Assembly (NCBI GenBank): GCA_964499705.1 | Contig: CAZCME010000002.1 | Coordinates: forward strand, 310,001-374,000 | Direction of reading: 5' to 3' | DNA: 64,000 nucleotides | Origin: an uncultured bacterium | Lineage (GTDB): Bacteria; UBA8481 | In this document: positions 32,809 to 40,257 of the stretch, in pieces | Layout: every line of letters begins with the position of its first letter | How positions within the stretch are numbered: position 1 is the stretch's first letter | Position numbers and translations under genes: made by a program | The notes under the pieces: generated by a model | Told to the model about the DNA's origin: nothing | Database searches by the model: none | The model's input: only the letters and a program-made list of their open reading frames with translations

Positions 32809-34476
32809 ATGGCCGGCAAGATCCCCCACGTTCTCCTTTATGCCGCGGGTCTCGGAGCGGCATGGCTGGCGGAGCAGAACGGATCGAACGCGCAGTTCCT
32901 GATTCTGGCGCTCGGCGTGCCGATCGCCGCCCTGACGTCCACGCGGAAAAGCACGCCGAGCACCGCGACGCTCTGGCTCTGGGGAATTCTCGCCCTCATG
33001 CTGCTTCCGGCATCAACGGTTCGCCTGTACCCGGTCCTCTACGCATACCTCCCCGGTTTCGGAACTTCATTTCCGCCGACACGCTTTCTTTTTGTGCTCG
33101 CTCTGGCTGCCCTGTTCGCGGGTTTTCGCAGGTGGGATCCGGGACGCCTGAGGGCCTGGCATTTCGGCCTGCTCTTCCTTTGGATCACGATCTGCGCGGC
33201 CCGGTCGTTCGAAATCTACAAGAGGCTCGGCTACGGGTACGACCTGGCTCATGTCCTGAACCTCCTGGATAATACGCTCCAGGGTCGATTCCTCTTCAGC
33301 GATTATACGAACGCAAGCATCCTGTCTCATCACCTCTACTTGACGCTTCCCCTGCTGGCTCCCCTCTATTTCTTCGTGCATAGTCCTTATCTGCCTCAGG
33401 CCGTGCAGATCCTCCTCATGGCTGCCTCCGCGATCATCCTGCCCTGGGGCATCACGAAGAGATTCGGGAAGGATGCGGGAATGGCGGCCTTTTTTACATT
33501 CCTGATGCACCCGGCCTTCCAGGGACAGATTCTCCACGAATTCGACCCCGGCGTGATAGGCCTGTTCGCGGTGTCGCTTGCGATCCTCGGATTCTGCGAT
33601 CATTCGCCCCCTCTCTTCTGGACCGGTTGCATCGGCGCGGTGCTGTCGAAGGAGCATTTTGCCGCGGCCATGATCGTGATCGGGATCGTGATGATCGTGA
33701 CCGATCAGGGCAGGCGGGAGGGCAAGATCATGGTCGGCGGAGCTTTCGCGCTGCTCCTGGTGTTCATTCTATATTCGCTTCTCTCTCCCGGCACTTTCAA
33801 CTTGAAGTCCCAATGGGAGCTTCGAACCGGCGGCAGCATCATGACGCTGATAACGGAAGTATTCCGCCCGGCCAAGATCGGGTATGTGGTCCACATGTTC
33901 CTGCCGAGCGGAGGATTGGCGTTTCTGGCCTGGCCTGTCGTCCTCGCGGCGCTGCCGGAGCTCGCCATCAACGTCGTGTCGCGTTTTCCCATGAACCAGC
34001 TTGCCTCCCATTATTCCACCGTGTCCCTGCCGCTCCTGGCGCTGGCGTCCTCGCTGGCCGTCGCGCGCTGCGCCTCGAGAGATCACGAGCTGGGCCGATG
34101 GGCCGCGAAATACGTGATCTGCGCCAGCGTGGGTGCCGCGCTCTTTTCGAACCTGGGCCCCATTTCCCATTCGCTCGCCTTCTACGATGTACTGATGACG
34201 GAACGCGACTGGAAATTCCGGTATCTCGACAGCATGATAGCGCGGATACCGCCCGGCACGGTCGGTATCCGCGGCAGCCACAGGCTCCTGATCTATTTTT
34301 CCCGGCGTCGCCCTGCAATCGATCTTTCCTACATCAACTCGAGGGAGATGGTGGAGAGCAGGGATTTTCTCGTGCTCGACGAGTACTACGGCGGACCGCC
34401 CGATGGCTACACCCTGCTCGAAAGCGAAGGGAGGACATTCGTGTACGAAAAAACGCGGGTCGAAAAAGCTCAGTAG
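32809..34476 (+). CDS. DUF2079-like polytopic membrane protein (putative GT-C glycosyltransferase)
   Basis: GYDLAH, ILSHH...PLLAPLY, LSKEH, HYS pattern and many TM helices; start uncertain. Confidence 0.65.
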   Translation: MAGKIPHVLLYAAGLGAAWLAEQNGSNAQFLILALGVPIAALTSTRKSTPSTATLWLWGILALMLLPASTVRLYPVLYAYLPGFGTSFPPTRFLFVLALAALFAGFRRWDPGRLRAWHFGLLFLWITICAARSFEIYKRLGYGYDLAHVLNLLDNTLQGRFLFSDYTNASILSHHLYLTLPLLAPLYFFVHSPYLPQAVQILLMAASAIILPWGITKRFGKDAGMAAFFTFLMHPAFQGQILHEFDPGVIGLFAVSLAILGFCDHSPPLFWTGCIGAVLSKEHFAAAMIVIGIVMIVTDQGRREGKIMVGGAFALLLVFILYSLLSPGTFNLKSQWELRTGGSIMTLITEVFRPAKIGYVVHMFLPSGGLAFLAWPVVLAALPELAINVVSRFPMNQLASHYSTVSLPLLALASSLAVARCASRDHELGRWAAKYVICASVGAALFSNLGPISHSLAFYDVLMTERDWKFRYLDSMIARIPPGTVGIRGSHRLLIYFSRRRPAIDLSYINSREMVESRDFLVLDEYYGGPPDGYTLLESEGRTFVYEKTRVEKAQ

Positions 34477-35792
34477 TTGATTCCGTGCTTCTCCAGCTTG
34501 TACTGCAGGGCCTGACGCGAAACACCCAGCTTCTGCGCGGCCGCGGTCCTCGATCCCCCCGTCTCCTTCAGCGCTTCGGTGATCAGCCGGCGCTCGAATT
34601 CATCCACCAGCTCCGGCAGGGAACTTCCTGAGGCGAGTGCGCGAGCCGGGCGGGTGATGGTCGAAGGCACATCGGCCAGCGTCACGCGCTTTCCGCCCAT
34701 CCCCTTCACGCGCTCCACCACATTCTTCAGCTCCCGGATGTTCCCCGGCCATCCGTAGGAACAGAGCATATCCATCACATCGGATTCGATCGTCATTCCC
34801 GGCAGAAGAGCGCCGATGATCCGCTCCACGTCGCCCTCGCGATCCCGCAGCGGCGGCACTTCCAGGTGGAGGACGGCCAGGCGGTAATAGAGATCCTCGC
34901 GGAAACGGTTCGCCGCCACGGCTTCCGCCAGGTCCCGGTTCGTCGCGGCCAGGATCCGGACATCGACGCGCGTCGGAGCAACGCCTCCGAGCCTGATGAA
35001 GGATTTATCCTCGATGACGCGCAGGAGTTTCACCTGGACCGTGGTCGGCATCTCGCCGATTTCGTCGAGAAAGACGGTGCCTCCCGGAGCGGATTCGAAG
35101 AGGCCCTTCTTCATCTTGTGAGCGCCCGTGAAGGCGCCGCGCTCGTGGCCGAAGAGCTCGCTCTCCAGGAGCGTCTCGGGTATGGCCGCGCAGTTGATCT
35201 CCATGAACGGTCTGCGGGACCGGCCGCTGCGCCGATGCACCGCGCGCGCCACAAGCTCCTTTCCCGTGCCGCTCTCCCCCGTTATCAGAACGGTCGCGTC
35301 GCTCTCCGCGACCCGCGCGATGGCGGCGTAGAGCCTCTTCATCGGAGCGGAGGCTCCGATCATCTCCTCGAAGCGGTCCTGTTCCGCCAGCATTTCCCGG
35401 AGCCGGGCGTTCTCCTCGTGAAGCCTCGTCTCCATCAGCGCGCGGTCGACGATCAGGCGGAGCTCGTCGAGCGACGCGAAGGGTTTCGTGATGTAGTCGG
35501 AGGCACCGCGCTTCATGGCATCCACGGCATTTTCGATCGAGGCGAAGGCCGTCATGATGATGACCGGCACTCCCGGATGATGCTCCTTCACTTCCTGCAA
35601 CAGCTCGAAGCCGTGATCCTCCCCGAGTTTCAGGTCCAGGAGAACGACGGCGGCATTCGCGAGCTTGTCCCTGGCCTGGGCGAGCGAGGATGCCGTCGCC
35701 AGTGGTCGGCCTTCCAGGGCGCGCGTCACAAGCTCGAGGATGCGCGCTTCGTCATCGACGACGAGCACGGCGGTGCGAGGATTCGTTGTCAT
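34470..35792 (-). CDS. Sigma-54-dependent response regulator (NtrC/AtoC family)
   Basis: REC (VVDDE, LLDL, KPF), GESGTGKE, ESELFGHERGAFTGA, WPGNIREL, Fis-type HTH. Confidence 0.95.
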   Translation of the reverse strand: MTTNPRTAVLVVDDEARILELVTRALEGRPLATASSLAQARDKLANAAVVLLDLKLGEDHGFELLQEVKEHHPGVPVIIMTAFASIENAVDAMKRGASDYITKPFASLDELRLIVDRALMETRLHEENARLREMLAEQDRFEEMIGASAPMKRLYAAIARVAESDATVLITGESGTGKELVARAVHRRSGRSRRPFMEINCAAIPETLLESELFGHERGAFTGAHKMKKGLFESAPGGTVFLDEIGEMPTTVQVKLLRVIEDKSFIRLGGVAPTRVDVRILAATNRDLAEAVAANRFREDLYYRLAVLHLEVPPLRDREGDVERIIGALLPGMTIESDVMDMLCSYGWPGNIRELKNVVERVKGMGGKRVTLADVPSTITRPARALASGSSLPELVDEFERRLITEALKETGGSRTAAAQKLGVSRQALQYKLEKHGINY

Positions 35793-39973: not shown

Positions 39974-40257
39974 GGAATGAAGATCATATCCTCCCGGGCC
40001 AGAGGCCAGCGCTCGGCGTCCGGTTCCTCCGTCGCGATGATCTTCACTCCGCAGCTGAGGATGCGCGCGAGAAGCTGCTCCAGTTCGCCCGCGCGGCTCG
40101 AGGCTCCTTCCCGAAACTGGACGAAGAGCTCGATCGGGCGTGATTCGTCGCCCGTGTCTGCCGTGGAGGATGCAACGAGAGCGATGGTCGCGACGCGAAA
40201 CCGCGGCCATTCCTGCCGTTGTTGCGCAATGAGCGAGAGGACGGGTATGGGATTCAA
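39970..40257 (-). CDS. Small degenerate MNT-like (minimal nucleotidyltransferase fold) protein
   Basis: RFRVATIALVASSTADTGDESRPIELFVQF...ELEQLLARILSCGVKII...EDMIFI follows MNT spacing; ATGA overlap with next gene; TTG start inferred. Confidence 0.5.
   Translation of the reverse strand: MNPIPVLSLIAQQRQEWPRFRVATIALVASSTADTGDESRPIELFVQFREGASSRAGELEQLLARILSCGVKIIATEEPDAERWPLAREDMIFIP

Follow-up and report, generated by a model that had tools for sequence, protein, structure and literature searches.

The stretch of DNA analysed here (the window; 64,000 nucleotides, positions 310,001 to 374,000 of the forward strand of contig CAZCME010000002.1 in assembly GCA_964499705.1, from an uncultured bacterium of the GTDB lineage UBA8481) carries five open reading frames (ORFs) on one strand behind a tRNA-Ser(GCT) gene, designated g1 to g5 in the order of transcription. 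The best reading of the locus is that its conserved unit consists of the four genes g2–g5, which are vertically inherited and specific to a small candidate phylum; g1, which resembles minimal nucleotidyltransferases (MNT), was found only in this genome, so that the conserved unit has four genes. The first of these, g2 (38393–39973, minus strand, 526 aa), encodes a Cas4-like PD-(D/E)XK domain followed by a GAF-like domain and a GGDEF domain. It is followed by g3 (36798–38396, minus strand, 532 aa), a Wzy_C membrane protein with a tail resembling tetratricopeptide repeats (TPR), by g4 (35789–36784, minus strand, 331 aa), a histidine kinase with two transmembrane (TM) helices, and by g5 (34470–35792, minus strand, 440 aa), a sigma-54-dependent response regulator of the NtrC family. 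What was established directly for this unit is its domain make-up, the conserved residues, the synteny and the range of taxa that carry it. The operon is not a new kind of system; what appears to be new is the very probably dead nuclease as the presumed input domain of a diguanylate cyclase in a phylum-specific operon.

Residues 3–228 of g2 match PDDEXK_1 (PF12705) in Pfam with an E-value of 1.2e-30 and 107.7 bits against a cut-off of 22. The score with the NCBIfam cas4 model TIGR00372 is 44.4 bits, under the cut-off of 65, which indicates that the nuclease domain belongs to the family without being an equivalog. AlphaFold2 models were obtained for full-length g2 (pLDDT 83.1, from a 9-row alignment) and for its N-terminal 345 residues alone (pLDDT 73.8). 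A Foldseek search with the N-terminal model placed ACE1 (9iac_A, E 1e-6) at the top, followed by SSO0001, AdnAB, Dna2, Cas4-Cas1 and Exo5, and superposition with VIA-align gave Z scores of 13.4 for AdnA, 12.8 for ACE1, 11.3 for AddB and 10.9 for Cas4. The full-length model retrieved mostly GGDEF structures.

Residue conservation was read from an alignment of 24 rows, of which 16 represent the g2 clade (13 distinct sequences) and eight form an outgroup of seven stand-alone Cas4-like proteins and one fusion protein from a genome designated G017. The sole columns that are invariant in all 24 rows are C15, W70, C218, C221 and C227. Four of them constitute a pattern of one cysteine near the N-terminus and a CxxCx5C motif, which we take to be the Fe-S cluster ligands of the Cas4-type family. 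The catalytic Lys of the D/E-x-K motif, which all eight outgroup rows have within D-Y-K-[TS]-G, is missing from all 16 clade rows, and its position is occupied in the 13 distinct sequences by A, T, H, R, A, V, E, V, V, H, T, A and S. The same substitution is apparent in the profile-to-PDB alignment, in which the D-F-K of ACE1 faces D-Y-[not K] in the clade. The acidic residue of D/E-x-K is also gone in three distinct sequences (G004/P0016, P0008 and P0011), and motif II (GRIDRID) is mostly kept, with its Asp replaced by Ala in G003 (L095)/P0009 and by Glu in P0011. Because the catalytic Lys is absent across the clade and the cysteines are invariant, the nuclease of g2 is very probably inactive, with its Fe-S cluster site under selection. 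The degraded nuclease active site that a first-pass annotation had read from this one sequence is thereby confirmed for the whole clade.

The nuclease domain of g2 is followed by the GAF-like domain (about residues 245–340), a long helix (344–368) and the GGDEF domain (367–515). Superposition of residues 243–345 on GAF domains gave middling VIA-align Z scores (PDE2A, 6.0; PDE6, 5.9; KdpD, 5.4), and the GAF-like call is corroborated by the related fusions P0056, P0108, P0033 and L108, in which Pfam GAF sits at the same position. The GGDEF domain (PF00990) was detected with an E-value of 1e-32 over profile positions 1–161 of 161, and its score with TIGR00254 is 128.5 bits (cut-off 37.4). All nine aligned g2-type sequences keep the GGEEF motif, residues D399 and D401 of the DxD metal site and the KxxGRN region unchanged, and none of them displays an RxxD inhibitory site upstream of GGDEF at the distance where we assume that it would lie. 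Judging from these residues, the GGDEF domain of g2 should be an active cyclase that is free of product inhibition.

The fusion of a nuclease domain with a cyclase is found beyond the clade. Among 18 scanned proteins, chosen as longer proteins with a nuclease match at or near the N-terminus, six combine PDDEXK_1 with GGDEF, namely P0016, which belongs to the clade, P0056, P0059, P0108, P0029 and the G017 protein; P0059 and P0029 are, by name, proteins of Elusimicrobiota metagenome-assembled genomes (MAGs). The D-Y-K-T motif is kept in five of six proteins checked by pattern (P0059, P0108 and P0029, which have GGDEF, and P0033 and P0089, which do not), and D-Y-K is kept in the G017 fusion/L108 of the 24-row alignment. 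The G017 fusion shares about 28% identity with g2 and has a nucleotidase and a radical SAM protein as neighbours. The PDDEXK_1-GAF-GGDEF fusion predates this phylum and extends beyond it, and the dead nuclease and the operon context are features of this clade itself. A more ambitious reading holds that Cas4-family Fe-S nuclease domains were recruited as diguanylate cyclase inputs, the architecture being seen in at least three lineages (this phylum, the Elusimicrobiota MAGs and G017). On this reading, the intact nuclease motif of most lineages would point to a coupling of c-di-GMP (cyclic di-GMP) synthesis to the recognition or processing of DNA ends, and in this phylum the dead domain, with its Fe-S site kept and the glycan ligase and sigma-54 switch in the same operon, would form an undescribed route by which nucleic acids or redox state remodel the cell surface; as a whole it appears rather unlikely to us.

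A diguanylate cyclase is characterised by the signal that its input domain perceives, and a full-text literature search, taken at the level of its result listings, returned no published account of a Cas4-like nuclease-GGDEF fusion or of a Cas4-like Fe-S nuclease fold as such an input. Should the domain sense redox state or DNA ends, it would represent a new signal class for c-di-GMP signalling, and another nuclease fold turned sensor.

The phylum is sampled by five species, the window's own genome (G000) and four relatives (G001–G004), and all genes of the window were compared with the relatives' loci (L094 in G001, L095 in G003, L096 in G004) in one tblastn search. A search of genome contigs with full-length g2 yielded 80 loci, all of which were GGDEF-only matches at query residues ≥311. 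With the N-terminal 340 residues as the query, matches were obtained in 12 of 41 genomes, and the strong ones came from the rest of the family (three genomes, E 2.0e-80 to 3.5e-95) and from the single further genome of the order (E 2.5e-21). The g2-type fusion is carried by all five species of the phylum, and the order g2, g3, g4, g5 is kept in the loci of all four relatives and hence in 5/5 genomes, the contig of G001 ending inside g5. The identity of g2 to its relatives is 42–47% within the family and falls to 31% in the other one; the corresponding values for g5 are 59–64% and 58%, and identities of 35–42% for g3 and 39–47% for g4 were obtained by tblastn. G+C contents range from 43% to 68%, that of the window being 60.7%.

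Searches of larger collections returned the same arrangement. A metagenome scan with the g2 N-terminal alignment gave six loci, three of which (L102–L104, about 42% G+C and G001-like) carry g2–g5 in order, with g5 of L103 truncated where the contig stops; the remaining three represent distant nucleases. The word-indexed protein search returned seven relatives of g2, six of them with PF12705 and PF00990, and four relatives of g3, and two further contigs (4804 and 29502 bases) hold homologues of both g2 and g3. A HMMER search with the N-terminal 345 residues of g2 against 1.84 billion representatives gave 990 matches at E≤0.001. Only six proteins, all of 513–524 aa, reached E≤1e-30, which indicates that the g2 family is rare; the NCBI cluster name of one clade member is 'Candidatus Hydrogenedentes bacterium'. 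The first-pass annotation had proposed a unit of five genes and had made it depend on their co-occurrence elsewhere. Such co-occurrence was found for g2–g5, in the five genomes and in three metagenome contigs, and the proposal fails for g1, which none of the four relatives has.

Four functionally unrelated genes could also stay together by shared descent in a small clade, without any joint function. All evidence for a link is indeed positional, known occurrences amount to five species and a few contigs, and the G017 fusion, the only one outside the phylum whose surroundings were read, is without g3–g5 within 18 kb. However, the gene order and tight coupling persist despite identities of 31–47% for g2–g4, the wide range of G+C and a varying upstream flank, and gene order does not usually survive such divergence without selection. 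We therefore hold shared descent without joint function to be improbable, though it deserves consideration.

The junctions of the array were read directly from the sequence. Overlaps of the ATGA type occur at 39970–39973 (g1/g2), 38393–38396 (g2/g3) and 35789–35792 (g4/g5), a 13-nt gap that contains GAGAAGG (36785–36797) precedes g4, and a scan of the minus strand found no terminator-like site inside the five-gene array. A search for sequencing runs that contain this genome returned six DNA runs from two studies and no RNA run; one further run of the same sample contained almost none of the sampled words. The start of g2 at 39973 fits all homologues, which begin with M[RK]xxSV, and a longer ORF from 40210 does not; inspection by eye revealed no Shine-Dalgarno box at normal spacing before this start. 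Coupling is similarly tight in the relatives: the g2/g3 overlap is again 4 nt in G002 and G003, these two genes abut in G004, and g3 and g4 share 4 nt in G001. Downstream, a gene for a DUF2079 polytopic membrane protein (32707–34476, plus strand; Pfam DUF2079, E 7.5e-25) converges on g5 with an overlap of 7 nt, and is preceded by ftsK (30237–32765, plus strand), assigned by its Pfam FtsK domains. These two genes also converge behind g5 in G002 and G004, that is, in three of the five genomes with the window, and G003 has other genes there. Directly upstream of the array lies tRNA-Ser(GCT) (40329–40421, minus strand; ARAGORN, Rfam tRNA 63.2 bits), with a sigma-70-like promoter before it (40462–40434, from a promoter scan) and a hairpin with a T-run at its 3' side (about 40290–40262, read by eye). 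A tRNA-Ser precedes g2 in three of the five genomes, the window, G002 (with a gap of 70 nt) and G003. The overlaps, the gap, the convergent DUF2079-like gene and the upstream tRNA-Ser are all as first described.

Further away in the window, a protein with Wzz and AAA_31 domains, of the polysaccharide co-polymerase/tyrosine-kinase type, is encoded at 23326–25362 (minus strand), some 9 kb away from the operon. A pair of ComEA-like HHH_3 genes is located at 25885–28438. A second GGDEF gene is present at 55791–56720 (minus strand) as an open frame of 311 aa (G000:C2:365821-366285).

Residues 162–288 of g3 match Wzy_C (PF04932) with an E-value of 1.3e-10 and 41.7 bits (cut-off 31.7). The protein displays eight hydrophobic segments followed by a C-terminal tail of 159 residues (about residues 374–532), and its score with TPR_14, 22.2 bits, is slightly under the cut-off of 23.5. 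Profile searches matched g3 to the catalytic-loop region of WaaL (7tpg_B, E 4.6e-5) and also to consensus TPR proteins; NCBIfam models gave no match. Five residues, R175, R214, R224, H273 of an AHN motif and E282, are invariant in 7/7 sequences, and we presume that the His and Arg among them have the roles assigned in work on WaaL. On this sequence evidence g3 could belong to any of three Wzy_C subtypes (ligase, polymerase or protein O-glycosyltransferase), which the tools used here do not separate.

HisKA and HATPase_c were found by Pfam in g4, preceded by two N-terminal TM helices that a loop of about 14 residues connects; the protein has no recognisable sensor domain. Residues H135 and N237 (N box) and the G-boxes are invariant in 5/5 sequences. 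The same holds for C174 (in EARRCE, within the dimerisation and phosphotransfer region), which could be a redox-sensitive site. By analogy with intramembrane-sensing kinases, g4 may be signalled to by a partner in the membrane, for example g3. A complex prediction for g3 and g4 returned a score of 0.00 (mark 0.32), a value that says nothing either way on binding.

The response regulator g5 contains Response_reg, Sigma54_activat and HTH_8 in Pfam. Its sequence keeps the DD pair, the acceptor D53, the T and K residues, Walker A and GAFTGA, and ends in a Fis-type helix-turn-helix; the sigma factor itself is represented by one rpoN match in the genome (E 5e-63). Pfam supports the domain calls that had been made from the sequence of g2–g5. 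No named NCBIfam equivalog was reached by any of g1–g5. The scores of g5 were 442.7 for AtoC (cut-off 714) and 374.2 for PrsR (cut-off 502.6; third-best), and g4 scored 71.6 with PrsK (cut-off 300). An identity with the PrsK-PrsR-PrsT system of PEP-CTERM/exosortase loci was considered and rejected, as the scores lie below the cut-offs and g4 has half the profile length. A search for exosortase (PF09721) gave no match in the genome, which is 95.97% complete.

Potential targets of g5 were sought as sigma-54 sites. The window contains 37 sites with at most two mismatches, versus 45.5 expected; when GG and GC were fixed, only intragenic or non-conserved sites were found in the window and six loci, and the regions upstream of g2 in the five genomes have no common sigma-54 site. 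Individual sites do precede pilin-like genes. In G004, the genes directly upstream of g2 are two of the prepilin type (N_methyl; L096:7716-8915), and a sigma-54-like site with one mismatch, CGGCACGCGTTTTGCT at 7719–7734, precedes them. In the window's genome, two of the 47 best sigma-54-like sites (G000:C1:197151 and C1:281221) precede prepilin-like ORFs of the GFTLIELLVVVAI type.

These sites speak for a function of the operon in pilin or protein O-glycosylation, in which g3 would be an oligosaccharyltransferase of the PglL/PilO type, enzymes that are Wzy_C proteins as well, and g4 and g5 would act like PilS and PilR on sigma-54-dependent pilin genes. The other four of the five genomes, however, have no pilin gene adjoining the cluster, g4 has two TM helices compared with six in PilS, and the 47 sites are not assignable to g5 among the roughly 21 activators of the genome. 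The Wzy_C subtypes, protein oligosaccharyltransferases included, are also inseparable here. We regard a pilin glycosylation system as quite unlikely.

The reading that we prefer is that g2–g5 form an inherited module of c-di-GMP and sigma-54 control that sets a surface-glycan or adhesion state, and to this we assign about even chances. What we infer in this proposal is every functional link among the four proteins, together with the signal and the glycan. The dead Cas4-like domain of g2 would function in sensing or binding, its input being the redox state of its cluster, a nucleic-acid end or a partner, and, via the reduced GAF-like domain and the signalling helix, would gate the synthesis of c-di-GMP. 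The Wzy_C/TPR enzyme g3 would act on a surface glycan, and the sensor-less, membrane-anchored g4, together with g5, would switch sigma-54 promoters elsewhere in the genome. Surface polysaccharide or adhesion would be controlled at two levels, transcriptionally by the histidine kinase, response regulator and sigma-54, and post-translationally by c-di-GMP.

Several observations weigh against this proposal. Conservation in five related species is also expected from shared descent alone. The genome contains 27 matches to Sigma54_activat (21 of them at E≤1.5e-38), 29 to GGDEF and nine to Wzy_C, and with so many copies of each family only position ties g2–g5 together. No sigma-54 promoter stands at a conserved place near the cluster, which implies that the targets of g5 lie elsewhere, and the operon has no genes for glycan synthesis, such as those for glycosyltransferases or a flippase, next to it. 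As to the input domain, one clade member has Arg in place of the catalytic Lys, and the Fe-S cluster of Cas4, AddB and Dna2 is regarded as structural, so that invariant cysteines need not mean redox sensing. The weight of the case is further limited in that each part comes from a widespread family, position is the sole link and the clade has few members. The operon nonetheless marks the whole phylum, a groundwater lineage that has hardly been studied, and offers a handle on how these organisms control their surface.

The remaining member of the array, g1 (39970–40257, minus strand), encodes 95 aa from a TTG start, and its stop overlaps the ATGA start of g2. Its codon log-odds are 0.284 in frame versus -0.555 and -0.213 out of frame, and same-size chunks of real genes gave 0.14–0.56; this coding-like usage speaks for a real coding ORF. 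Pfam returned no match to g1 even at E≤10 and NCBIfam none, a genome-wide scan for NTP_transf_2 (PF01909) and Polbeta (PF18765) found matches elsewhere and none at g1, and comparison with PDB sequences gave noise only (E 1.2). A word-indexed search of 5.8 billion proteins retrieved only g1 itself, and the four related genomes have no homologue, either at the locus or genome-wide (best E 0.18). In the ESM Atlas (features 0.94, 176/256 shared), 24 of 30 matches belong to NTP_transf_2/Polbeta clusters of 94–107 aa, and the predicted structure superimposes on nucleotidyltransferase clusters with TM-scores of 0.75–0.77 over 89–91 aa. In place of the hG[GS]...DxD catalytic motif of MNT proteins, g1 has VASSTAD...RPIEL, versus FGSSAKG...SDLDL in the genome's own MNT, with the Gly and the first Asp lost. 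A predicted MNT-like fold with a degenerate catalytic motif is a fair description of g1, and is to be taken as a lead and not as demonstrated membership. The pseudo-MNT of the first-pass annotation is retained in that sense, as a predicted fold with a degraded motif, and is qualified by the lack of a family match and of conservation. On sequence grounds we treat g1 as a species-specific add-on outside the conserved core; it is probably the leftover of a small mobile gene of the toxin-antitoxin type that is now translationally coupled to g2.

The spacer in which g1 resides varies among genomes, being occupied by g1 in the window and by small ORFs in G001, reduced to 70 nt in G002 and filled with repeats in G003. 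The leader from tRNA-Ser to g2 contains no Rfam family besides the tRNA, and no unusual fold (z 0.14). In G001 (L094, about 4280–4700), two small ORFs are found upstream of g2, the second of which begins MRITYDSEVDALYIRF. By eye we took this pair to be of the DUF4258/DUF2283 type, the start of the second being presumably typical of DUF2283, and it may constitute a small toxin-antitoxin-like pair. In G003 (L095:10670-11051), a 55-nt stretch with the 3' end of tRNA-Ser in it has an identical second copy 291 nt downstream, and a 68-nt unit recurs with 99% identity; these repeats resemble the att-type scars that insertions at a tRNA leave. In the window, the last 12 nt of tRNA-Ser (40329–40340) recur 45 nt downstream at 40284–40295, inside the hairpin and T-run, and a two-copy repeat as short as this may be due to chance.

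This variable spot behind tRNA-Ser, together with the Cas4-family fold of g2 and a weak match of g1 to the PADLOC candidate PDC-S09 (E 9.8e-5, 20.7 bits), is compatible with a role in the response to phages or foreign DNA, which had been put forward for the array at the outset. Two degraded folds would sense invading DNA or nucleotides and trigger changes in c-di-GMP and envelope glycosylation; the fusions of other phyla keep D-Y-K, so that DNA recognition by the ancestral domain is plausible. The cluster, however, is present in 5/5 genomes of the phylum with its gene order unchanged and its flanks partly shared, a pattern of core inheritance and not of a patchy mobile island. One of the two presumed sensors, g1, is missing from the other four genomes, and the nuclease Lys is lost clade-wide. 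PADLOC-DB 2.0 gave domain-level matches only, to the Cas4 domain and to the AAA+ domains of RtcR/PspF, with g3 and g4 left unmatched, and the neighbours of the operon include no CRISPR, Argonaute or helicase gene. Based on these results, a defence function is not supported, and we consider it very improbable.

A comparison with known systems reveals both shared and distinct features. With WaaL, Wzy and PglL, g3 shares the Wzy_C core, the invariant His and Arg residues and the profile match to WaaL 7TPG, but it adds a TPR-like tail of about 160 aa, and its homologues were found in this lineage only (four matches). The arrangement is like PrsK-PrsR-PrsT in that a kinase, a sigma-54 regulator and a TPR element stand beside a surface-polysaccharide function. 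Compared with the MNT antitoxins of HEPN-MNT modules, g1 is similar in size and predicted fold, but is not detected by Pfam, has a degenerate motif and has no adjacent HEPN partner. The nuclease domain of g2 has the fold and the four-cysteine pattern in common with Cas4, AddB, AdnAB and ACE1; by contrast, it is without the catalytic Lys, and is fused to GAF-like and GGDEF domains and not to a helicase or a CRISPR adaptation partner. The PDDEXK_1-GAF-GGDEF fusions of other phyla have the same domain order, GAF position and GGEEF site as g2, and most of them keep the D-Y-K-T motif that the g2 clade has lost. Finally, in comparison with the GAF-GGDEF and PAS-GGDEF cyclases (PleD, DgcZ, DosC), g2 is set apart by a very probably dead nuclease with an Fe-S motif as its input and by the absence of RxxD, whereas the N-terminal position of the input, the helical linker and the intact C-terminal GGDEF domain are alike in both.

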